This document shows, piece after piece, positions 16,030 to 63,420 of a stretch of 64,000 bases of DNA. The position numbers were made by a program, and so were the translations under genes. The stretch's first letter is position 1, and each line of letters opens with the position of its first letter. The notes under the pieces were generated by a model. It did not search any database. It worked only from the letters and a program-made list of their open reading frames with translations, and was not told where the DNA came from. Source of the DNA: Mustelus asterias (taxonomy: Eukaryota); contig NW_027590197.1 in the NCBI RefSeq assembly GCF_964213995.1, positions 186,001 to 250,000 on the forward strand, written 5' to 3'.

Positions 16030-18496
16030 ATGGAAGGGGAAAGCACGGTTAACAGTGGAGAGAAACTGTACACGTGTTCTGTGTGTGGACGAACATTCAG
16101 CCGATCATCTGGCCTGTTGAAACATAAATGCAGTCACAACAGGGAGAAACAATGGAAATGTGGAGACTGTGGGAAGAGATTCAGATTTCCATCTGAACTG
16201 AAAACTCATCGACACAATCACACTGGAGAGAGACGACACAAAACTGGCAGGACTTGCAGATAGTGAGGAACATTGTCAGAGGCTACAGAAGGATATAGAT
16301 AGGCTGGAAATTTGGGCAAGGAAATGGCAGATGGAGTTCAATCCTGATAAATGAGAAGTGATGCATTTTGGTGGGAATAATGTAGGGAGGAGCTACACGA
16401 TAAATGGAAGAACCATAAAGGGTGTAGAGTCGCAGAGGGACCTGGGTGTGCAAGTCCACAGATCTTTGAAGGTGACGTCACAGGTGGAGAAGGTGGTGAA
16501 GAAGGCATATGGCATGCTTGCCTTTATAGGAGGGGGCATAGAGTATAAGAGTTGGGGTCTGATGTTGCAGATGTATAGAACGTTGGTTCGGCCGCATTTG
16601 GAATACTGCGTCCAGTTCTGGTCGCCACACTACCAGAAGGACGTGGAGGCTTTGGAGAGAGTACAGAGGAGGTTTACCAGGATGTTGCCTGGTATGGAGG
16701 GGCTTGGTTATGAGGAGAGATTGGGGAAACTGGGGTTGTTCTCCTTGGAAAGACGGAGGATGAGGGGAGACTTAATAGAGGTGTATAAAATTATGAAAGG
16801 CATAGATAGGGTGAACGGTGGGAAGCTTTTCCCCGGGTCGGTGGTGACGTTCACGAGGGGTCATAGGTTCAAGGTGAAGGGGGGGAGGTTTAACACAGAT
16901 ATCAGAAGGACATATTTCACACAGAGGGTCGTGGGGGCCTGGAATGTGTTGCCGGGCAAGGTGGTGAAGGCGGACACACTGGGAACGTTTAAGACTTATC
17001 TAGACAGCTATATGAACGGAGTGGGAATGGAGGGATACAAAAGAGTGGTCTAGTTTGGACCAGGGAGCGGCGCGGGCTAATTGTTCCTTGTTTCTCGTTT
17101 CAAGGCTTCATTCTATGATCATCTTGCTGGTGCCAGTACAGAGCGAGACTGCGGATAGTTGGGAACCTGTCTCGGGGGCAGGGAATTCATATGGTGTTTG
17201 TGGAAGTGGAAATGACTAGGGTTGGGAAGCATTTTCCGATCAGGGCCATTGTGATCTCCTGGACTCGTTTCGATCGCCTCAGGGGGTCGGAGAGGAATTT
17301 CCCAGATTCTTTTTCCCCATATTGGCCCTGGGGTTTTCACTCTGGGTTTTCGCCTCTCCCTGGAGATCACATGGTCTGGAATGGGGGGGTGGGGGTGAGT
17401 TAATAGGTTGTGATGAACAAAGCATCGTAGCTGTGAGGGACAGCTCGGTGGATAGGATATTGGTATGTAGATAGGCTGGAAAATTGGCCGGGGATCCTGG
17501 ATTCAGGATTCAATCCTGGACCGGGGAGCGGCGCGGGCTTGGAGGGCCGAAGGGCCTGTTCCTGTGCTGTATTGTTCTTTGTTCTTGAGACCATTCACCT
17601 GCTCTGAGTGTGGGAAGGGATTCACTACCTCATCCATCTTGCTGACACACCGGCGAGTTCACACTGGGGAGAGACCGTTCACCTGCTCCAAGTGTGGGAT
17701 GGGATTCATTTGTTCATCGCATCTGCTGAAACACTGGTGGGTTCACACTGGGGAGAGGCCATTCAACTGTCATGAGTGTGGGAAGGGATTCGCTACCTCA
17801 TCAATCCTGCTGACACACCAGAGAGTTCACACTAGAGAGAGACCATTCAGATGCTCTGATTGTGGGAAGGGATTCCCTACCTCTTCTATCCTGCTGAAAC
17901 ACCAGCGAGTTCACACTGGAGAGAGCCCGTTCACCTGCTCTGAGTGTGGAAAGGGATTCACTGATTCATCCGACCTGCTGAAACACCAGAGAATTCATAA
18001 TGGGGAGAGGCCATTTATCTGCTCCGAATGTGGAAAGGGATTTACCCAGTCATTCAACCTCCTAAAACACCAGCGAGGTCACACCGGAGAGAAGCCGTTC
18101 ACCTGCTCTGAGTGTGGGAAGGGCTTCAGTCAGTCATTCATCTTGTTGAAACACCAGCGAGTTCACACTGGGGAGAGGCCATTCACTTGCTCCAGTTGTG
18201 GGAAGGGATTTATTGATTCATCCACCCTGCAGAGACACCAGCGAGTTCACACCGGGGAGAGACCATTCACCTGCTCTGATTGTGGTAAGAGATTCAGTCA
18301 ATCATCCAACCTGGTAAAGCACCAGCGAATTCACACTGGGGACAAGCCATTCACCTGCTCCGTGTGTGGGAAGGGATTCACTCAGTCACCTCACTTGCTG
18401 AAACACCAGCGTGTTCACGAGCGACTGCAAGGACTGGATTTTGCTCTTAATCACATCAAGGTCCTGACTATTTTCATTGGTGTCTGTTTCTGCTGA
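16030..18496 (+). pseudogene. C2H2 zinc-finger gene (2+10 fingers) disrupted by a CR1 insertion (unit 3)
   Basis: Removing 16235-17591 (element plus one GAGAC copy) restores CAC ACT GGA GAG AGA CCA TTC (HTGERPF) in frame. Confidence 0.85.
16235..17586 (+). mobile_element. 5'-truncated CR1/HER1 LINE inserted in a ZNF exon
   Basis: Starts at the DTK of the RT; ORF 16358-17053 (RPHLEYCVQFWSP...FTQRVV); tail gggccgaagggcctgtt...gttctt; GAGAC at 16230-16234 and 17587-17591. Confidence 0.9.
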
Positions 18497-18872
18497 TAAA
18501 TCCTAGCCCAGCTGGAAGGTTTATATTTTGGGTGGAACTCAAATACACAAGCTTTATGTTCAACACAGTGTGATGAATGCTTTTAATACCTCAAACATGT
18601 TAGTTCCATTTGAAGGGCTTCCCCCTCTCCCGTCTCCTCCATCCTCACCTCCAACAAGTGTGAGGAGCTCATGGAGCTTCTTTGTCACCAAGATTGAGAC
18701 AATCTGATCAGCTGTCTCTGCTCCTTCCCTCTCTTCCATTCGCCCACCGGGCTAAACTGTCTTTAAATTTCCTTCTGGCCTGACTCTTGAACTCATAAAT
18801 ACAAACAGGAAGTGCTGTAAAAACACGCGGGTCTGACAGCACCTCTGGCGAGAGAAACAGATTTAATGTTTT

Positions 18873-19060
18873 GGGAGGCACGGTAGCACAGTGGTTAGCA
18901 CTGCTGCTTCACAGCGCCAGGGACCCAGATTTGATTGCCGGCTTGGGTCACTGTCTGTGTGGAGTTTGCACATTCTCCCCGTGTCTGCGTGGGTTTCCTC
19001 CAGGTGCTCCGGTTTCCTCCCACATTCTGAAAGACGTGCTGGTTAGACGCATTGACCCGA
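18873..19060 (+). mobile_element. HE1-like SINE 5' part
   Basis: ggcacggtagcacagtggttagcactgctgcttcacagc head. Confidence 0.8.
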
Positions 19061-19392
19061 ACAGCTTGTCTGGACTTGCAGAATCTCACTGGCTGTCCTG
19101 TCTGGAGACAATACACATCTCTTTAACGTGTGCTTAATGCTCCCTCCATTCACATTGTTTGTACCTTTAAGACTTGAATATCTGTAAAGACTGCATTCCA
19201 ATCATTATTCTGTAAATTGAGTTTGTGTCTCTGTATGCCCTGTTTGTGAGCATTTCTCCACTCCACCTGACGAAGGGGCAGCGCTCCAAAAGCTAGTGGC
19301 ATTTGCGACCAAATAAACCTGTTGGACTTTAACCTGGTGTTGTTAAACTTCTTACTGTGTTTACCCCAGTCAACGCCGGCATCTCCACATCA
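19061..19392 (+). mobile_element. Penelope-like element 3' end (pLTR) fragment
   Basis: Similar to 23110-23443, ending ...tttaccccagtcaacgccggcatctccacatcat. Confidence 0.8.
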
Positions 19393-19809
19393 TGGATTCA
19401 GTTCTCCAGCTCCTGTCTGCAGACTGACAATAAAACCAATGGGTCTTATTGGGGGTGTTGGGGCCTCCAGCGGGTGTTTGTGAATCCTCCCCGCCCACCT
19501 CCCAGGGTTTCCTTCCTTCCCAGAGATCAGAGTCCTCATTGATTTGAGGCCAAAGTGTAACCTCTTATTTATTGTCCCCCTCCCCCATCCTCTGATGTGA
19601 ACCATCCTCCAGTGGCTGAGCCAGGATGGGGCCGTTAACCTGGGCCTGTTCCCGGGAGGGAGGGAGGGAGAAGCCCCGCAGCTGCAAACCAGGGAGCTGA
19701 CAATGATTCTGAAGGGTTTGCGGATCCACAAAGTGTTTCCAAATCCTCCCAGCCACCGCCTAACGCTGACTCCGCTTCTCCGGGACAAACAACCGCCAAG
19801 GACAGCAAT

Positions 19810-19990
19810 GACACTGCGCATGCTCCACATCACAATGCCCGGCACTGATTGACGGCAGCTCCGGACCAATAGGAAGAGGGGGCGGGGCTGGAGGACTGAG
19901 CGGGAGCGGCTGGTCCTCCGACCAATCAGAGTGAATGAGGGGCGGGACCTGAAGCATGCGCAGTGCGGGTAATGGCGACGGACAGACGGA
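19810..19990. promoter_or_regulatory. Putative bidirectional promoter core
   Basis: NRF1-like TGCGCATGCT, ATTGA, CCAAT, GGGGCGGGG, CCAAT, GGGGCGGGA, GCATGCGCA, TAATGGCG; homologous at 40430-40610 and 62990-63150. Confidence 0.65.
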
Positions 19991-20237
19991 TGGTTTTAAC
20001 TTGGAAGCGAGATCAATACGAGGTAGAGGGCGGCGTGCGAGGAATGATAAATGTGGCGGGTGGGTGGAGAGGCTTTGTAAACATGTTGTTCAAACCCAAA
20101 CCCCGGAAATGAACTTCCCGGTTCCCCCCCTTTGTACCAAATGGAGCGGCAGCTTGTAGTGTTAGACCCGGGCTGACTGCCGCCATTGAGGCTGCATGTG
20201 GGAGGCCGGCAGGGATTGTGATCGGAGAGTGAAGCCC

Positions 20238-20401
20238 TGACGTCACAATGGAATGGGTGACAGTGTGACGTCACAATGGAATGGGTGGGAGTGTGAGGTC
20301 ACAATGGAATGGGTGAGAGTGTGATGTCACAATGGAATGGGTGAGAGTGTGACGTCACAATGGAATGGGTGAGAGTGTGATGTCACAATGGAATGGGTGA
20401 G
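20238..20401. repeat. 28-bp minisatellite, ~6 units (TGACGTCACAATGGAATGGGTGAGAGTG)
   Basis: Unit starts at 20238, 20266, 20294, 20322, 20350 and 20378. Confidence 0.9.
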
Positions 20402-20455
20402 GGTTCCAGATGAGCTGAGACTGGGCTGGAGTCGGGCGATGGCACTGACATGTGG

Positions 20456-20665
20456 CCTGGTGGCGCAGTGGTTAGTGCAGCTGCCTAACAGCGCCAGGGA
20501 CCCGGGTTCAATTCCAGCCTCGGGTCACTGTCTGTGCAGAGTTTCTACATTCTCCCTGTGTCTGTGTGGGTTTCCTCCAGGTGTTCCGGTTTCCTTCCAC
20601 AGTCTAAAGATGTGCAGGTTAGACAGATTGGCCATGATAAATTAACCCTTGGCATCAGGGGGATT
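20456..20665 (+). mobile_element. HE1-like SINE, 5' part (3' part continues at ~23457-23550 after the PLE insertion)
   Basis: tggcgcagtggttagtgcagctgcc...gggttcaattcc head; continuation aacaggtaaatatgtggatagggcctgg...gggctgaatggcctcc. Confidence 0.8.
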
Positions 20666-21047
20666 CACAGTAAGAAGTTTAACAACACCAGGTTAAAGTC
20701 CAACAGGTTTATTTGGTAGCAAAAGCCACACAAGCTTTCGAGGCTCTGAGCCCCTTCTTCAGGTGAGTGGGAATTCTGTTCACAAACAGAACTTATAAGA
20801 CACAGACTCAATTTACATGAATAATGGTTGGAATGCGAATACTTACAACCAATCCAGTCTTTAAGAAACAAAACAATGGGAGTGGAGAGAGCATCAAGAC
20901 AGGCTAAAAAGATGTGTATTGTCTCCAGACAAGACAGCCAGTGAAACTCTGCAGGTCCACGCAACTGTGGGAGTTACAAATAGTGTGACATAAATTCTGA
21001 TTCTAGGATCGCATGATAAAGACTCAGGAGGAAAAAAGCAGAAATAT

Positions 21048-22040
21048 TTATGTGAAATAGTGTGACATAAACCCAATATCCCGGTTGAGGCCGTCCTTGT
21101 GTGTGCGGAACCTGGCTATCAGTTTCTGCTCCGCGACTCTGCGCTGTCGTGTGTCGCGAAGGCCGCCTTGGAGAACGCTTACCCGAATATCAGAGGCCGA
21201 ATGCCCGTGACCGCTGAAGTGCTCCCCAACAGGAAGAGAACAGTCTTGCCTGGTGATTGTCGAGCGGTGTTCATTCATCCGTTGTCGCAGCGTCTGCATG
21301 GTCTCCCCAATGTACCATGCCTCGGGACATCCTTTCTTGCAGCGTATCAGGTAGACAACGTTGGCCGAGTTGCAAGAGTATGTACCGTGTACCTGGTGGA
21401 TGGTGTTCTCACGTGAGATGATGGCATCTGTGTCGATGATCCGGCACGTCTTGCAGAGGTTGCTGTGGCAGGGTTGTGTGGTGTCTTGGTCACTGTTCTC
21501 CTGAAGGCTGGGTAGTTTGCTGCGGACAATGGTCTGTTTGAGGTTGTGCGGTTGTTTGAAGGCAAGAAGTGGGGGTGTGGGGATGGCCTTGGCGAGATGT
21601 TCGTCTTCATCAATGACATGTTGAAGGCTCCGGAGGAGATGCCGTAGCTTCTCCGCTCCGGGGAAGTACTGGACAACGAAGGGTACTCTGTCCACTGTGT
21701 CCCGTGTTTGTCTTCTGAGGAGGTCGGTGCGGTTTTTCGCTGTGGCGCGTTGGAACTGTTGATCAATGAGTCTAGCGCCATATCCTGTTCTTATGAGGGC
21801 ATCTTTCAGCGTCTGGAGGTGTCTGTTGCGATCCTCCTCATCCGAGCAGATCCTGTGTATACGGAGGGCTTGTCCGTAGGGGATGGCTTCTTTAACGTGT
21901 TTAGGGTGGAAGCTGGAGAAGTGGAGCATCGTGAGGTTATCCGTGGGCTTGCGGTACAGTGAGGTGCTGAGGTGACCGTCCTTAATGGAGATGCGCGTGT
22001 CCAAGAATGCAACCGATTCCGGAGAGTAGTCTATGGTGAA
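21048..22040 (-). CDS. Penelope RT C-terminus/thumb plus GIY-YIG endonuclease (left arm, 5'-truncated)
   Basis: FLD, LYRKPT, S.HP, NVVY.IRC..C...YIGET..LRQRMNEH and ..GLN motifs of PLE ORFs. Confidence 0.85.
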   Translation of the reverse strand, partial: FTIDYSPESVAFLDTRISIKDGHLSTSLYRKPTDNLTMLHFSSFHPKHVKEAIPYGQALRIHRICSDEEDRNRHLQTLKDALIRTGYGARLIDQQFQRATAKNRTDLLRRQTRDTVDRVPFVVQYFPGAEKLRHLLRSLQHVIDEDEHLAKAIPTPPLLAFKQPHNLKQTIVRSKLPSLQENSDQDTTQPCHSNLCKTCRIIDTDAIISRENTIHQVHGTYSCNSANVVYLIRCKKGCPEAWYIGETMQTLRQRMNEHRSTITRQDCSLPVGEHFSGHGHSASDIRVSVLQGGLRDTRQRRVAEQKLIARFRTHKDGLNRDIGFMSHYFT

Positions 22041-23029
22041 CCATAGACTACTCTCCGGAATCGGTTGCATTCTTGGACACGCGCATCTCCATTAAGGACG
22101 GTCACCTCAGCACCTCACTGTACCGCAAGCCCACGGATAACCTCACGATGCTCCACTTCTCCAGCTTCCACCCTAAACACGTTAAAGAAGCCATCCCCTA
22201 CGGACAAGCCCTCCGTATACACAGGATCTGCTCGGATGAGGATGATCGCAACAGACACCTCCAGACGCTGAAAGATGCCCTCATAAGAACAGGATATGGC
22301 GCTAGACTCATTGATCAACAGTTCCAACGCGCCACAGCGAAAAACCGCACCGACCTCCTCAGAAGACAAACACGGGACACAGTGGACAGAGTACCCTTCG
22401 TTGTCCAGTACTTCCCCGGAGCGGAGAAGCTACGGCATCTCCTCCGGAGCCTTCAACATGTCATTGATGAAGACGAACATCTCGCCAAGGCCATCCCCAC
22501 ACCCCCACTTCTTGCCTTCAAACAACCGCACAACCTCAAACAGACCATTGTCCGCAGCAAACTACCCAGCCTTCAGGAGAACAGTGACCAAGACACCACA
22601 CAACCCTGCCACAGCAACCTCTGCAAGACGTGCCGGATCATCGACACAGATGCCATCATCTCACGTGAGAACACCATCCACCAGGTACACGGTACATACT
22701 CTTGCAACTCGGCCAACGTTGTCTACCTGATACGCTGCAAGAAAGGATGTCCCGAGGCATGGTACATTGGGGAGACCATGCAGACGCTGCGACAACGGAT
22801 GAATGAACACCGCTCGACAATCACCAGGCAAGACTGTTCTCTTCCTGTTGGGGAGCACTTCAGCGGTCACGGGCATTCGGCCTCTGATATTCGGGTAAGC
22901 GTTCTCCAAGGCGGCCTTCGCGACACACGACAGCGCAGAGTCGCGGAGCAGAAACTGATAGCCAGGTTCCGCACACACAAGGACGGCCTCAACCGGGATA
23001 TTGGGTTTATGTCACACTATTTCACATAA
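22040..23029 (+). CDS. Penelope RT C-terminus/thumb plus GIY-YIG endonuclease (right arm, 5'-truncated)
   Basis: Same protein as the left arm apart from DEEDR/DEDDR; open frame but no RT catalytic core. Confidence 0.85.
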   Translation, partial: TIDYSPESVAFLDTRISIKDGHLSTSLYRKPTDNLTMLHFSSFHPKHVKEAIPYGQALRIHRICSDEDDRNRHLQTLKDALIRTGYGARLIDQQFQRATAKNRTDLLRRQTRDTVDRVPFVVQYFPGAEKLRHLLRSLQHVIDEDEHLAKAIPTPPLLAFKQPHNLKQTIVRSKLPSLQENSDQDTTQPCHSNLCKTCRIIDTDAIISRENTIHQVHGTYSCNSANVVYLIRCKKGCPEAWYIGETMQTLRQRMNEHRSTITRQDCSLPVGEHFSGHGHSASDIRVSVLQGGLRDTRQRRVAEQKLIARFRTHKDGLNRDIGFMSHYFT

Positions 23030-23311
23030 ATATTTCTGCTTTTTTCCTCCTGAGTCTTTATCATGCGATCCTAGAATCAGAATTTATGTCACACTATTTG
23101 TAACTCCCACAGTTGCGTGGACCTGCAGAGTTTCACTGGCTGTCTTGTCTGGAGACAATACACATCTTTTTAGCCTGTCTTGATGCTCTCTCCACTCCCA
23201 TTGTTTTGTTTCTTAAAGACTGGATTGGTTGTAAGTATTCGCATTCCAACCATTATTCATGTAAATTGAGTCTGTGTCTTATAAGTTCTGTTTGTGAACA
23301 GAATTCCCACT

Positions 23312-23351
23312 CACCTGAAGAAGGGGCTCAGAGCCTCGAAAGCTTGTGTGG
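23312..23351 (+). ncRNA. Minimal hammerhead ribozyme-like motif in the PLE pLTR (mirror copy at 20726-20765 on -)
   Basis: CAC-CTGAAGA-A-GGGGC-TCAGA-GCCTC-GAAA-GCTT-GTG: CUGAnGA/GAAA core boxes, stem II, palindromic AAGCTT stem III, CAC/GTG stem I; PLE pLTRs are known to carry minimal hammerheads. Confidence 0.6.
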
Positions 23352-23678
23352 CTTTTGCTACCAAATAAACCTGTTGGACTTTAACCTGGTGTTGTTAAAC
23401 TTCTTACTGTGTTTACCCCAGTCCAACGCCGGCATCTCCACATCATCAGGGGGATTAACAGGTAAATATGTGGATAGGGCCTGGATGGGATTGTTGTCGG
23501 TGCAGGCTCGATGGGCTGAATGGCCTCCTCCTACAATGTATTTTATGATTCATTACTGTTAATTAATTAATTACTTTGAATGAAGGTGGTCTTGATGATG
23601 ATGTGGACGTGGTTGGAAGCTCATATTGGGATGAACTATTTCACCCTGGTTGTGAACAGCCTGGTTCAGCCTCAGACA

Positions 23679-24047
23679 GTAAGTAATCTCACAACACCAG
23701 GTTAAAATCCAACAGGTTAATTTGCTGGCATAAGCCACAGGATTTTGGAGCGCTGCTCTTCATCAGGTGAGTGGGAGTTCTATTCACAAACAGGGCACAG
23801 AGACACAAACTCAATTTACAAAATAATGGTTGGAATGTGAGTCTTTACAGGTAATCAAGTCTTAAAGGTACAGACAATGTGAGTGGAGAGAGGGTGAAGC
23901 ACAGGTTAAAGAGATGTGTATTGTCTCCAGCCAGGACAGTTAGTGAGATTTTGCAAGCCCAGGCAATTTGTGGGGGTTACAGATAGTGTGAGTTACAGAT
24001 AGTGTGACATGAACCCAAGATCCCGGTTGAGGCCGTCCTCATGTGTG
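23679..24047 (-). mobile_element. Older Penelope-like 3' fragment
   Basis: Diverged reverse complement of ~22975-23410 (caacaccaggttaaaatccaacagg...cccggttgaggccgtcc). Confidence 0.8.
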
Positions 24048-24954
24048 ATTGACAGATCCATGCTCACTGCTTCTTGCCCTGGATGCAGAGAGCTGAAAAT
24101 TTCCATGCAGGCTGCCAGACAAATAAATGTCTACATTACTGGAGTAAAAATGTGTGGAATATACAGACCGAATTCACTTCATTCCCTTCAGTTGCTGCAA
24201 GTCCCCAATTTCCCCAGAATGAGAAAAGAAATGGAAAGGGGGAAACATTGATTTCCTCCCAGATGTTGTCCAGAAGAGGAAGTTTCAATCTGAAGCTCAT
24301 TGGACAACTTCCGCATTGTGACGTCACAATGGAGCCTGCCTGAATCAGCGAATAGGAATCTCTCTTCCTACATCAAGAGCTGATGTTTCTTGTCTCGATG
24401 ACCCTTTGTCAAAGCTCTGAAACATCAGTTCTTTTCTCTCCATCCAGATGCTGCCAGACCTGCTGAGAATGGGGAGAGAGTGTGTGGGATGGAGATTTAC
24501 AGCTTTTGGGGAATGAGAGAGGAAAGAATGTTCCATAGAAATTGTCTGTTCTGAATTTCTATGCTGTACTGACACTGATGACTTTTGTAAACTCGTTTTA
24601 CAGGATATTGAAAGAGGAATCACAGGCCGAAATCTCGAACGTCATGTCTAGACGTGACAGAGTCATATTCCTTGGGACCTCAATATCATCGGACTTTGAA
24701 TCCAGAAGGAGAAATGATTGTCCAGTCTGTCGATTTGAAAAGATTTGAAATGTCAGTGTGAGTGAAAAAGCATCAACACACTGCCACACTTGAATGAGAG
24801 TGTTCCAATGCACTGACTAAAGAGCTTTAACCAGTTACACAGTCTGAATAAATATCACACCATTCACAGCGGGGAGAGACTGTAATCTTGTTCTGAGTGT
24901 GGGCGAAGTTTCAACTAATTGTCCAGTCAAGAGAGAGGTAAGGACACCTGCACC

Positions 24955-25881
24955 ATGGATAAACCATGGAAATGTGGGGACTGTGGGAAGGGATACAGAG
25001 CCCCATCTAAGCTGGAAGCTCATCGACGTAGCCACACTGGGGAGAGACCATTCACCTGCTCTCAATGTGGGAAGGGATTCACTCGATTATCCCTCCTGCA
25101 GAGACACCAGCGAGTTCACACTGGAGAGAGGCCATTTTCCTGCTCTCAATGTGAGAAGGGATTCAGTCAGTTATCCGACCTGCAGAGACACCAGCGAGTT
25201 CACACTGGGGAGAGGCCGTTCACCTGCTCTCAGTGTGGGAAGGGATTCACTCAATTATCCACCCTGCGGACACATGAACGAGTTCACACTGGGGAGAGGC
25301 CATTCACCTGCTCTCAGTGTGGGAAAGGATTCATTCTGTTATCCAGCCTGCGGATACACCAGCGAGTTCACACTGGGGAGAAACCATTCACCTGCTCTCA
25401 GTGTGGGAAGAGATTCACTCAGTCAGCCGACCTGCAGAGACACCAGCTACGTCACACAAGGGAGAGGCCGTTCACCTGCTCTCAGTGTGGGAAGGGATTC
25501 ATTCTGTTATCCAGCCTGCGAATACACCAGCGAGTTCACACTGGGGAGAAACCATTCATCTGCTCTCAGTGTGGGAAGGGATTCACTAACTCATCTGATC
25601 TGCGGACACACCAGCGAGTTCACACAGGGGAGAGGCCGTTCACCTGCTCTCAGTGTGGGAAGGGATTCACTCAGTCATCCCACCTGCAGAGACACCAGCG
25701 AGTTCACACTGGGGAGAGACCATTCAACTGTTCTCAGTGTGGGAAGGGATTCACTCAGTCATCCAACTTGCAGACACACCAGCGAGTTCACACTGGGGAG
25801 AGGCCATTCACCTGCTCTCAGTGTGGGAAGGGATTCAGAGTTTCATCCCACCTGCTGAGACACCAGCGAGTTCACGAGTGA
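24955..25881 (+). CDS. C2H2 zinc-finger protein, 11 fingers (unit 4)
   Basis: ORF 24919-25881; Kozak ATG cACCATGG at 24955; highly homogeneous CSQCGKGF fingers. Confidence 0.85.
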
Positions 25882-26106
25882 TTCCAGAGGTTGGATTCTG
25901 CTGTTATTGTTTCTGCTCTCAATTACATCCAGGACTGCATTTTGTTCATTCTCACAGTTGGTCAATGGGGAGGGTCAGAGGGTTTTTTTCTGCTGGACTG
26001 GCCGGTCTCATGACTTTGCCTCCAGTGGGCTGATGCTCTTTGAGTCTTGTTGCGAATACCTGGTTTTTAGATTTCACACGGATCACAGAGTGACAGGGTG
26101 TGAGGA

Positions 26107-33460: not shown

Positions 33461-34879
33461 ATGTTGTTCCTCTGTTTAAGAAAGGGAATAGAAATGACCC
33501 TGGTAATTATAGACCGGTTAGTCTGACTTCGGTGGTTGGTAAATTGATGGAAAAGGTCCTTAGGGATGGGATTTACGACCATTTGGAGAGATGCGGATTA
33601 ATCCGGGATAGTCAGCACGGATTTGTGAAGGGCAAATCGTGCCTCACAAATTTGATAGAATTTTTTGAGGAGGTAACTAGGTGTGTTGATGAAGGTAGGG
33701 CGGTTGATGTCATATACATGGATTTTAGTAAGGCGTTTGATAAGGTCCCCCATGGTCGGCTTATGATGAAAGTAAGGAGGTGTGGGATAGAGGGAAAGTT
33801 GGCCGATTGGATAGGTAACTGGCTGTCTGATCGAAGACAGAGGGTGGTGGTGGATGGAACATTTTCGGACTGGAGGCAGGTTGCTAGCGGAGTGCCGCAG
33901 GGATCGGTGCTTGGTCCTCTGCTCTTTGTGATTTTTATTAATGACTTAGAGGAGGGGGCTGAAGGGTGGATCAGTAAATTTGCTGATGACACCAAGATTG
34001 GTGGAGTAGTGGATGAGGTGGAGGGGTGTTGTAGGCTGCAAAGAGACATAGATAGGATGCAAAGCTGGGCTGAAAAATGGCAAATGGAGTTTAACCCTGA
34101 TAAATGTGAGGTGATTCATTTTGGTAGGACTAATTTAAATGTGGATTACAGGGTCAAAGGTAGGGTTCTGAAGACTGTGGAGGAACAGAGAGATCTTGGG
34201 GTCCATATCCACAGATCTCTAAAGGTTGCCACTCAAGTGGATAGAGCTGTGAAGAAGGCATATAGTGTGTTAGCTTTTATTAACAGGGGGTTGGAGTTTA
34301 AGAGCCGTGGGGTTATGCTGCAACTGTACAGGACCTTGGTGAGACCGCATTTGGAATATTGCGTGCAGTTCTGGTCACCTCACTATAAGAAGGATGTGGA
34401 AGCGCTGGAAAGAGTGCAGAGGAGATTTACCAGGATGCTGCCTGGTTTGGAGTGTCGGTCTTATGAGGAAAGGTTGAGGGAGCTGGGGCTGTTCTCTCTG
34501 GAGCGGAGGAGATTGAGGGGAGACTTAATAGAGGTTTATAAAATGATGAAGGGGATAGATCGAGTGAACGTTCAAAGACTATTTCCTCGGGTGGATGGAG
34601 CTATTACGAGGGGGCATAACTATAGGGTTCATGGTGGGAGATATAGGAAGGATATCAGAGGTAGGTTCTTCACGCAGAGAGTGGTTGGGGTGTGGAATGG
34701 ACTGCCTGCAGTGATAGTGGAGTCAGACACATTAGGAACATTTAAGTGGTTATTGGATAGGCACATGGAGCACACCAGGATGGTAGGGAGTGGGATAGCT
34801 TGATCTTGGTTTCAGATGAAGGTCGGCACAACATCGTGGGCCGAAGGGCATGTTCTGTGCTGTACTGTTCTATGTTCTA
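33461..34879 (+). mobile_element. 5'-truncated young CR1/HER1 LINE with open RT ORF (33532-34803)
   Basis: 423-aa uninterrupted ORF with QHGF, DFSKAFDKV, GVPQGSVLGP, FADDTK; (GTTCTAT)n tail. Confidence 0.92.
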
Positions 34880-38224: not shown

Positions 38225-38564
38225 GGGCGGCACGGTAGCACAGTGGTTAGCACTGCTGCTTCACAGCTCCAGGGTTCCGGGTTCGATTCCCGGCTCGGGT
38301 CACTGTCTGTGTGGAGTTTGCACATTCTCCTCGTGTCTGCGTGGGTTTCCTCCGGGTGCTCCGGTTTCCTCCCACAGTCCAAAGATGTGCGGGTTAGGTT
38401 GATTGGCCAGGTTAAAAATTGCCCCTTCGAGTCCTGGGATGTGTAGGTTAGAGGGATTAGCGGGTAAATATGTGGGGGTAGGGCCTGGGTGGGATTGTGG
38501 TCGGTGCAGACTCGATGGGCCGAATGGCCTCCTTCTGCACTGTAGGGTTTCTATGATTCTATGA
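38225..38564 (+). mobile_element. Full-length HE1-like SINE
   Basis: Pol III A-box TAGCACAGTGG and B-box GGTTCGATTCC, central domain, CR1-derived tail gggccgaatggcctccttctgcactgtaggg...(TTCTATGA). Confidence 0.9.
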
Positions 38565-40379: not shown

Positions 40380-40830
40380 AATTGCGCATGCTCCACATTC
40401 AGATCGAGTGTCCGGCCTCATCAGCCGGACCGGACTGCGCATGTGCCAGTTCACAATGCCCCGGGGAGGGTGATTGACGGCAACTCCGGACCAATAGGAG
40501 GAGGGAGGCGGGCCTGGACTACCGTGGGGGAGCAGCTGGTCCTCCAACCAATCAGCGTGAAAGAGGGGCTCCGACGGAAGCATGCGCATTACGGGTAATG
40601 GCGACGGCGAATGCTTATGACCTCGGATCCGTAATCGCCGATCGGTGGGTACGATTGAACCGGCGAGTAGACGGAAAGGCTTCAGAAACCGGTTGTGCGG
40701 ATCTGTAAACTCCCCCTAAAATTCACCAGTTCCCCCATTTGCATCGAGCGGGTCAAAGATCCCTGAGATCGGCCCACGCGTTAACGACCTCCATCTTTAT
40801 TGGGGGCAATACGCGGCGGTGCGCATGGGT
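40380..40830. promoter_or_regulatory. Putative bidirectional promoter between unit 6 (-) and unit 7 (+)
   Basis: Several TGCGCATG sites, two CCAAT boxes, a GC box and TAATGGCG; strongly CpG-rich. Confidence 0.65.
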
Positions 40831-54930: not shown

Positions 54931-55110
54931 GTCTTGCAGAGGTTGCTGTGGCAGGGTTGTGTGGTGTCATGGTCACTGTTCTCCTGAAGGCTGGGTAGTT
55001 TGCTGCGGACAATGGTCTGTTTGAGGTTGTGCGGTTGTTTGAAGGCAAGAAGTGGGGGTGTGGGGATGGCCTTGGCGAGATGTTTGTCTTCATCAATGAC
55101 ATGTCATTGA
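54931..55110 (-). mobile_element. Internal Penelope-like fragment
   Basis: Nearly identical to ~21448-21620. Confidence 0.85.
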
Positions 55111-61176: not shown

Positions 61177-62259
61177 AGAACATAGAACAGTACAGCACAG
61201 AACAGGCCCTTCGGCCCACGATGTTGTGCCGAGCTTTATCTGAAACCAAGATCAAGCTATCCCACTCCCTATCATCCTGGTGTGCTCCATGTGCCTATCC
61301 AATAACCGCTTAAATGTTCCTAAAGTGTCTGACTCCACTATCACTGCAAGCAGTCCATTCCACACCCCTACCACTCTCTGCGTAAAGAACCTACCTCTGA
61401 TATCCTTCCTATATCTCCCACCATGAACCCTATAGTTATGCCCCCTTGTAATAACTCCATCCACCCGAGGAAATAGTCTTTGAACGTTCACTCTATCTAT
61501 CCCCTTCATCATTTTATAAACCTCTATTAAGTCTCCCCTCAGCTTCCTCCGCTCCAGAGAGGACAGCCCTAGCTCCCTCAACCTTTGCTCATAAGATCTA
61601 CCCTCCAAACCAGGCAGCATCCTGGTAAATCTCCTCTGCATTCTTTCCAGTGCTTCCACATCCTTCTTATAGTGAGGTGACCAGAACTGCACACAATATT
61701 CCAAATGTGGTCTCACCAAGGTCCTGTACAGTTGCAGCATAACCCCACGGCTCTTAAACTCCAACCCCCTGTTAATAAAAGCTAACACACTATAGGCCTT
61801 CTTCACAGCTCGATCCACTTGAGTGGCAACCTTTAGAGATCTGTGGATATGGACCCCAAGATCTCTCTATTCCTCCACAGTCTTCAGAACCCTACCTTTG
61901 ACCCTGTAATCCACATTTAAATTAGTCCTACCAAAATGAATCACCTCACATTTATCAGGGTTAAACTCCATTTGCCATTTTTCAGCCCAGCTTTGCATCC
62001 TATCTATGTCTCTTTGCAGCCTACAACAGCCCCCCACCTCATCCATTACTCCACCAATCTTGGTGTCATCAGCAAATTTACTGATCCACCCTTCAGCCCC
62101 CTCCTCTAAGTCATTAATAAAAATCACAAAGAGCAGAGGACCAAGCACTGATCCCTGTGGCACTCCGCTAGCAACCTGCCTCCAGTCCGAAAATCTTCCA
62201 TCCACCACCACCCTCTGTCTTCGATCAGATATGATGTGGGCTATCCAATTGGCCAACTA
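61177..62259 (-). mobile_element. 5'-truncated CR1/HER1 LINE (same young subfamily as 33461-34879) in the unit-11 intron
   Basis: ORFs 61252-61818 and 61867-62256 almost identical in protein to 33532-34803; splits the conserved acceptor block. Confidence 0.9.
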
Positions 62260-62592: not shown

Positions 62593-62821
62593 CAGAGTAA
62601 CAGACCTTGTGTCCAGAACTGACTGCCTGGAGATTTTCTTAGAGGAGTCAAACCGCCTGGTTATTGATCCCTCTCACAAGAGGAAAGGTTTCCTGCAAAA
62701 CATGTCCCTCAGAATTGGTAAACTTCAGTCAGGTTCTCCCGCCCCCCCAATGCTGAGAATCCAGATTGCACTAAACACGCGCACGCCCCCCGACATTGAC
62801 CTCTCCCGGGTACCTCACAAT

Positions 62822-62985
62822 AAGAAGTTTAACAACACCAGGTTAAAGTCCAACAGGTTTATTTGGTAGCAAAAGCCACACCTGGAGATTTTGCTACCAA
62901 ATAAACCTGTTGGACTTTAACCTGGTGTTGTTAAACTTCTTACCGTGTTTACCCCAGTCCAACGCCGGCATCTCCACATCATGAC
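62822..62985. mobile_element. Miniature palindromic Penelope-derived insertion with 11-bp TSD
   Basis: 54-bp arms (62821-62874 and 62889-62942), same 3' extension as 23412-23443, TSD TACCTCACAAT at 62811-62821 and 62986-62996. Confidence 0.85.
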
Positions 62986-62989
62986 TACC

Positions 62990-63420
62990 TCACAATGCCC
63001 GGGGAGTGATTGACAGCAGCTTGGGACCGATAGGGAGAGAGGGCGGGGTTGGAGGACCGATCGGAGCGGCTGGTCCTCCAACCAATCAGAGTGAATGAGG
63101 GGGCGGGGCTTGGCTGTGAGTGAAGCATGCGCAGTCTAGTTAATGGCGACGAAGACAAGCTTTTGTTCTTTGGATCTGCCATCCGTAACCGAGAGAATGG
63201 CGAGACGAAGGGAACCACGGATCAGGTGAGTGACTGGATACGTAACGTAAACACGTTACACAAACCGCAAATGCGGAAAAAATATCCCACCGTTTCCCGT
63301 GAACCGTTGCCTCCTCCCTGCAGCAGGGGCCGCAGCTTTCTCACAGAGCTGGGTTTCGCGGCCGCTATCTTTATCCAGGCATTAGCAGCAGAGCGCATGC
63401 GCGGCTCCATCTTTGTTCGG
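62990..63420. promoter_or_regulatory. Putative bidirectional promoter core and first-exon cassette upstream of unit 11
   Basis: Homologous to 19830-19980 (GC boxes, CCAAT, GCATGCGCA, TAATGGCGAC); GCGCATGCGC at ~63393. Confidence 0.6.

Follow-up and report, generated by a model that had tools for sequence, protein, structure and literature searches.

Penelope-like elements (PLEs) are known for insertions in which an inverted, 5'-truncated copy lies adjacent at the 5' end and a 30–40-bp tail is often present on one side only (Craig et al. 2021, PMC8557442). Inverted units with 8–10-bp target-site duplications (TSDs), a 31-bp tail on one inverted pseudo-long terminal repeat (pLTR) and abundant palindromes at the inverted junctions have been described by Arkhipova et al. 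(2013, PMC3846280), who read these palindromes as self-priming. Both strands are nicked and extended by the protein of PAc, a Poseidon element of Anolis; this protein has a preference for ATT, is predicted to form a dimer and begins synthesis at two sites, one on either side of the tail (Frangieh et al. 2024, PMC11167929). Beyond the PLEs, LINE-1 twin priming preserves TSDs (PMC11702581), and the R2 reverse transcriptase (RT) jumps between separate templates (PMC8857657), a precedent for blunt joining. Here we analyze a PLE palindrome of 2.75 kb, which together with its TSDs spans 20653–23456, in a 64-kb window of Mustelus asterias (contig NW_027590197.1, positions 186,001 to 250,000), the window being the whole stretch of DNA, whose coordinates are used throughout.

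The palindrome very probably derives from one retrotransposition event of an endonuclease-bearing PLE of the Neptune/Nematis type, whose product is a head-to-head pair of 5'-truncated copies flanked by 13-bp TSDs; it lies inside a short interspersed element (SINE), within a cluster of zinc-finger genes in a shark-like genome. As for the mechanism, we favor dual priming, with a probability of about 0.5: both target nicks would serve as primers on a single RNA, at two known start sites, with synthesis running off the 5' end of that RNA. The locus resembles published endonuclease-positive PLE insertions in its head-to-head copies, its one-sided tail in the 30–40-nt range, the TSD around the whole unit, the palindromic junction and the minimal hammerhead in the pLTR; several features by which such insertions are recognized are present, namely a tail of 32–35 nt, an adjacent inverted 5'-truncated copy within the TSD and the hammerhead sequence motif. 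It differs in that both copies are equally truncated in the middle of the open reading frame (ORF), giving a 2.75-kb palindrome without a 5' pLTR, whereas the published descriptions consulted give inverted pLTRs of ~200 bp or unequal copies, and in a TSD of 13 bp rather than 8–10 bp. The structure is thus typical of PLEs rather than exceptional, a textbook kind of insertion in unusually clean form.

Geometry of the palindrome and identity of the element

By direct comparison within the window, the two arms measure 1372 bp apiece (20666–22037 and 22040–23411) and are identical except at one of the 1372 positions (21834/22243). A 32-nt extension (23412–23443) is confined to the right arm, and the 13-mer at 20653 and 23444 occurs exactly twice in the window, the chance of a 13-mer match at a fixed site being 1.5e-8. 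The long near-perfect palindrome is thereby confirmed, and the equal arms, single mismatch, one-sided extension and TSD first described are all reproduced exactly. We also find that the joined left and right flanks align to one intact SINE paralog (38234–38544) with 79% identity over 311 columns, and that the 16-nt gap relative to this paralog falls inside the duplicated 13-mer. The paralog alignment bears out the claim that the insertion splits a SINE, both flanks being halves of a single copy. This SINE, putatively HE1, was compared for similarity with the other SINE copies in the window.

Two details of the boundaries had to be redrawn. The sequencing data used here come from four of 24 listed runs, among which no RNA run was listed, a result without bearing on expression. 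These data, contigs of three organism-A runs (A being the best match) and raw reads of the relative organism C, were aligned to 22002–23660, and the rows inspected comprise 24 of ~174,000 pieces, 15 of 749 joints and 40 of 622 variant rows. The GA that separates the arms (2 nt, 22038–22039), at first described as a spacer, is the reverse complement of the two element bases preceding the breakpoint; relatives read L-T-M-D-Y-S there, and an X5 loose end before 22040 finishes CAGACTC. The GA is therefore templated by the element, the left arm extends to 1374 bp and the junction is blunt rather than separated by a foreign spacer, with a 2-nt offset, zero microhomology and zero filler. At the other end, two further copies in the window continue CCACAT-CATG, and reads continue GACTACCAT past 23446. 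Because the element continues past this position, the first three nucleotides of the TSD (CAT) double as element sequence, so that the 32-nt right-only extension stands but its clean separation from the TSD does not, and the tail is 32–35 nt long.

The one mismatch between the arms is derived on the tailed arm: the family has G at 22243 in 99.5–100% of the depth of the three organism-A runs, and T is found only on the tailed arm. Each arm contains 63 CpGs with zero differences between the arms. The features of the locus are collected in Table 1.

Table 1. Features of the palindrome, its surroundings and the second insertion (window coordinates)
Feature	Position	Strand	Remarks
Left TSD copy, 13 bp	20653..20665	+	3' end ATT, the motif preferred in vitro by a PLE endonuclease (PMC11167929)
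Left arm, tail-less 5'-truncated PLE copy	20666..22039	-	1374 bp including 2 templated nt (22038-22039)
Right arm, 5'-truncated PLE copy	22040..23411	+	1372 bp; derived base at 22243
Tail	23412..23446	+	32 nt private to the right arm plus 3 nt (CAT) common to element and TSD
Right TSD copy, 13 bp	23444..23456	+	
C-terminal ORF fragment, 329 amino acids (aa)	22040..23029	+	without YIDD; mirror 21048-22037, minus strand
CX4CxxC zinc-finger-like linker motif	22607..22633	+	CHSNLCKTC, residues 190-198
GIY-YIG core	22718..22771	+	two cysteines between the half-motifs
Subfamily marker, both arms	23008..23099	+	62-nt segment between two 15-nt repeat copies; mirror 20978-21069
Minimal hammerhead motif	23306..23351	+	CUGAAGA, 6-bp stem II, GAAA, palindromic AGCU; mirror 20726-20771
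AATAAA in the pLTR part of the arm	23364..23369	+	possible polyadenylation signal; mirror 20708-20713
Interrupted tRNA-type SINE, 5' part	20456..20665	+	
Interrupted SINE, 3' part	23457..23545	+	
Candidate CpG-rich promoter and first exon of downstream ZNF gene	19816..20022	+	two CCAAT, two GC boxes, CATGCGCA-type sites; candidate donor 20023, a prediction
Intact C2H2 zinc-finger ORF, 308 aa	24955..25881	+	11 fingers; candidate acceptor 24603
Miniature head-to-head insertion, same PLE family	62811..62996	.	11-bp TSD at 62811 and 62986

Each arm encodes an open fragment that comprises the RT end or thumb, a linker and a GIY-YIG endonuclease. The named protein relatives are shark proteins, the close ones being P0001 (83%) and P0002 (85%), both with DKG and YIDD; in these proteins, the RT lies upstream of the endonuclease in a single ORF (with an RVT_1 match for P0001), a part that is truncated away in the window. 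As this truncation removes the catalytic RT motif YIDD, neither arm is autonomous. The endonuclease is C-terminal and, by motif inspection, retains the conserved R, H, E and N, and its Pfam GIY-YIG match (E = 1.8e-4, 22.2 bits) is slightly below the cut-off of 22.6.

A CX2-5CxxC linker is also present in 11 of 15 homologues, and this motif is given to Neptune and Nematis and absent from Penelope/Poseidon (PMC8557442). Because of its CX4CxxC linker, we assign the element to the Neptune/Nematis type and not to Penelope/Poseidon; the label "Penelope" used at first is thus correct in the wide sense of a PLE but not for the clade. The C-terminal GIY-YIG domain with internal cysteines, the linker and the shark relatives with YIDD and DKG all correlate well with Neptune/Nematis, a placement made by linker motif. 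The present target is not a microsatellite; a bias toward microsatellites has been hypothesized for Neptune (PMC8557442).

The hammerhead motif follows the minimal definition of PMC4209133, with palindromic positions 15.2–16.2, a 2-nt bulge in stem I and a predicted cut between 23345 and 23346. A relaxed descriptor has three matches in the window, all within the same PLE family, and a strict descriptor has none in the window because stem I is bulged. An Rfam scan of 18000–26000 gave no hammerhead family match and two sub-threshold matches only; a match to mir-670 (36.6 bits versus 95) was rejected as merely the hairpin at the palindrome center.

The 62-nt marker segment is common in organism A and nearly absent from organism C: an X5 contig (depth 749) is identical over 22980–23115, and the depth of organism C is ~34 at the marker versus ~12,000 immediately upstream. 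This segment looks like a nested insertion or a template-switch duplication that was later amplified. Exact-pattern scans found zero loci in metagenome contigs and zero in viral contigs, and a protein scan of the metagenome contigs left one locus from 104 candidate stretches, a 92-residue match at 26% identity. Pieces of the element ORF are included, at 74–90% identity, in the shark host proteins P0005 and P0009–P0012 (NOXP20-like, septin 5a, XRCC5 and PPP1R12A-like isoforms), which is exonization or annotation error.

Abundance of the family and a second insertion

The family is very abundant, with an organism-C depth of ~15,000 in the endonuclease region that rises to ~60,000 at the pLTR end, compared with 4–7 in the flank. 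The raw reads of organism C exit into heterogeneous flanks at 23410 (6,788) and at 23445/23446 (7,137 and 18,994, the latter count also gathering every copy that runs further, as the reference leaves the element there). These two exits are the tail-less and tailed ends of the present insertion. At two sites, the arms share a base that is rare in the family among the variant rows listed: both have A at 22045, where G makes up 99.1–100% of the organism-A depth, and both have G at 23227, where A makes up 98.3–99.8%.

None of the listed pieces (24 of ~174,000) or joints (15 of 749) spans the palindrome center or either TSD junction, and an empty allele is absent among the rows listed for reads over 22002–23660. 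The survey of aligned reads lists no site where many molecules start or end, so that the 5' breakpoint 22040 is not an evident hot spot and the suggestion of a 5' breakpoint shared across the family is not borne out. Five of the 15 listed joints (749 in total) change strand. Four of these lie at 23354–23361 with equal or near-equal coordinates on both sides, represented by 367, 192, 128 and 68 organism-C reads, and three of the four are also present in organism-A contigs; short head-to-head insertions are thus common. The fifth is asymmetric (22243–22586) and occurs in one X1 contig. A 70-fold step in X23 depth at 23346 was considered as a sign of hammerhead-defined 5' ends and rejected, as it is confounded by subfamily divergence.

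The window holds a second, miniature insertion of the same design, composed of a tail-less left arm (62822–62881), a 7-nt filler and a tailed right arm (62889–62985). Its 5' ends lie 7 nt apart, and the start of the longer arm falls exactly on the predicted hammerhead cut. The tailed end shows 4 nt of microhomology, and at the tail-less end 5 of 6 positions match. This insertion sits in a paralog of the ZNF promoter.

Three further pieces of the family are present in the window. An older copy at 19061–19390 is 84% identical to the arm, tailed, and follows another SINE copy; a second at 23676–24047 is 79% identical, tail-less and internally shortened. The third piece, at 54931–55104, is a 174-bp internal fragment of the element ORF with 99% identity and no 3' end, perhaps inserted during templated repair of a break. 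A TSD was looked for around all three, and none was found.

Origin of the two arms

The shared rare variants, together with coincident ends at a position that is not a hot spot, indicate that both arms were copied from one template molecule, either by dual priming or by fold-back of a first copy. In dual priming, the element protein would first nick the two strands at positions separated by 13 nt. Aided by the 3-nt match (CAT), the bottom-strand end would prime the RT at the outer start site and yield the tailed arm, while the top-strand end, which finishes in ATT, would prime at the inner start site 32–35 nt further in on the same RNA and yield the tail-less arm. Both complementary DNAs (cDNAs) would then reach the same physical 5' end of the RNA, broken in the middle of the ORF, and stop 2 nt apart; their ends would be joined bluntly, by an end-to-end template jump or by end joining, and the second strands filled in.

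Much of this account can be read directly from the DNA: the geometry, the TSD, the blunt junction with zero microhomology, the shared rare variants and the two family-wide 3' ends are all observed. The two start sites, the nicking and extension of both strands and the predicted dimer are carried over from the literature on another PLE and may apply here by analogy. We infer the remaining steps, namely the single RNA, the run-off and the manner of joining. The TSD and the two family-wide 3' ends (23410 and 23445/6), which match the two RT start sites (PMC11167929), further support the initial proposal of a single PLE insertion that records its priming.

The parallels with PAc extend to the two ends that bracket the tail, the ATT at one nick and the hammerhead upstream of the tail (PMC11167929). 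PAc nevertheless belongs to another clade and starts without target homology, whereas both insertions in the window have 3–4-nt microhomology at the tailed end; inverted products are not discussed in the text of PMC11167929 consulted here. Dual priming also resembles LINE-1 twin priming, in which the RNA already in use also serves as template for priming by the second target end, the TSD is kept and the inverted segment is end-joined (PMC11702581, PMC10191854). The LINE-1 cDNAs, however, cover adjacent, non-overlapping parts of the RNA with gaps or overlaps of 1–10 bp, while here the same 1.37 kb is copied twice, resulting in a palindrome. A LINE-1-type twin-priming inversion proper was accordingly rejected, as the arms overlap over their full length, and the likeness is an analogy at most. 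We found no published account of dual priming for PLEs, PMC3846280 being the only relevant paper listed on self-priming or twin priming in PLEs and the key older PLE papers lying outside the literature searched, so that one may be in print; the excerpt of a 2026 retrozyme preprint (10.64898/2026.07.22.740005) contains nothing on inverted junctions.

Less probable than dual priming, although a serious contender, is a fold-back, in which the tailed cDNA is made first and its 3' end turns back, through a few non-templated bases or hairpin capping, to be copied as DNA up to the inner site and joined to the other target end. Several observations weigh against dual priming, some of them to the direct benefit of this alternative. 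If one arm served as template for the other, matching breakpoints and the same rare variants in both arms would be expected just as well, and the shared A is only 6 nt away from the junction, where a copied RT error would also be found. The strand polarity, antisense then sense, agrees with a fold-back as well, the 7-nt filler of the miniature insertion could be a non-templated addition, and self-priming is how Arkhipova et al. (2013, PMC3846280) interpret palindromic PLE junctions of this kind. In addition, the symmetric joints (23354–23354 and the like) are no proof of equal 5' ends, since other subfamilies diverge at that point (26,567 loose ends at 23354), and the long asymmetric strand-change joint indicates that coincident ends are not universal. 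The biochemistry stems from a Poseidon element of another clade, and only two insertions are readable in full.

The junction itself speaks against a fold-back. The family letters upstream of it offer no templated primer for folding back, and within the first 22 nt of the longer arm the closest palindrome begins 16 nt in. The loop would be 2 nt where a 4-nt loop is predicted. A fold-back needs an extra reason for the stop at 23410/1, a position that coincides with a known RT start site and with one of the ends seen throughout the family. Moreover, the derived mismatch is confined to the tailed arm, the arm that would serve as template, and is not obtainable by a pure fold-back synthesis error, a weak argument drawn from a single base. 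The 5' ends coincide within 2 nt here, with no hot spot among the rows listed, and within 7 nt in the miniature insertion. We favor dual priming because it uses only activities shown for a PLE protein (two nicks, two start sites), explains where the short arm stops and needs no primer at the junction.

A broader form of dual priming is more doubtful: a dimeric enzyme may copy one RNA twice, beginning at the two start sites around the tail and in each case running on to the physical 5' end of the RNA, and in many miniature insertions that end may be the hammerhead cut. The start at the cut is a single case, and for PAc no RNA-sequencing reads ending at the hammerhead site were seen (PMC11167929).

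A distinctly improbable group of explanations invokes two RNAs transcribed from the same source locus, a source that was already head to head and was copied whole, or an older, less symmetric insertion made even later by conversion between the arms or a central deletion. Palindromes with spacers below 9 bp are nuclease targets in yeast (PMC8053094), which would allow for a remodeled center, and conversion from arm to arm would also account for the near identity. Against these stand the identical TSD copies and the lack of any CpG difference between the arms, and two RNAs would not break at the same base in the middle of the ORF. Central deletions are expected to lengthen the asymmetry, not to leave 2 nt.

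A sequencing or assembly fold-back chimera, named at the outset as what could refute the structure, can hardly be the explanation, for although palindromes are hard to assemble (assembly problems are mentioned in PMC8557442) and no listed contig or read spans the center or the TSD junctions, such an artefact would carry a mirrored copy of the flanking DNA and could not produce a TSD, a tail on one side only that ends at the two ends of the family, contiguous SINE halves or an arm-specific base, and the same design recurs at a second locus in the window.

Age, setting and possible consequences

The insertion had been called very young, and relative to the other copies in the window, which are only 79–84% identical to the arm, this holds. 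In absolute terms it does not: at the epaulette shark rate of 7e-10 per base per generation (PMC10587355), one mismatch corresponds to 5e5 generations with a 95% range of 1.3e4–2.9e6, or to zero if it is a synthesis error, and conversion between the arms could hide the true age.

The surroundings are a C2H2 zinc-finger gene cluster, and the insertion falls in the predicted first intron of the intact 11-finger ZNF gene, in keeping with the position between promoter and gene noted in a preliminary description. Three paralogous CpG-rich promoter-like modules with CCAAT, GC box and CATGCGCA-type sites occur at 19780–20060, 40434–40607 and 62987–63151, and two of the three have the same PLE family inserted less than 1 kb away. 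Between the promoter and the SINE, at 20237–20400, lies a short tandem array with a unit of ~32 nt and TGACGTCA-like (CRE-type) words. The window also contains an inverted pair (33797–34878 and 61177–62258) of 1082 bp, 96% identical and 26 kb apart.

It is unlikely that the palindrome acts as a silencing hairpin, serving as a source of endogenous small interfering RNA or as an ADAR substrate, or that it drives rearrangement of the cluster as a cruciform; either would be a consequence of the insertion and not its origin. Given the predicted intron position, the pre-mRNA would fold into a 1.37-kb stem, and palindromes with spacers shorter than 9 bp are fragile in yeast (PMC8053094). The same predicted pre-mRNA would also meet the AATAAA at 23364. 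On the other side, the organism-C depth of the family relative to the flank implies that double-stranded RNA (dsRNA) of the family can arise at many loci, and with thousands of copies the present locus need not be a special source of it. The palindrome and the TSD are intact, there is no sign of rearrangement at the locus, and nothing indicates selection.

The origin of tandem and inverted structures is named as an open question in the PLE literature (PMC8557442), and this locus provides a clean data point. Its blunt junction, the coincident 5' ends in the middle of the ORF and the rare variants common to both arms narrow the possibilities to a single template molecule and speak against templated self-priming here. 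The finding also indicates that a 2.75-kb palindrome with a 2-nt center can occur intact in a vertebrate assembly, and the high-copy shark family offers the numbers to separate dual priming from fold-back. If the broader form of dual priming is true, dual copying with run-off would account in one step for the palindromic junction, the TSD and the presence of a tail on one side only, and the start of the miniature insertion at the hammerhead cut would be genomic evidence for ribozyme-cleaved RNA as the template in vivo.

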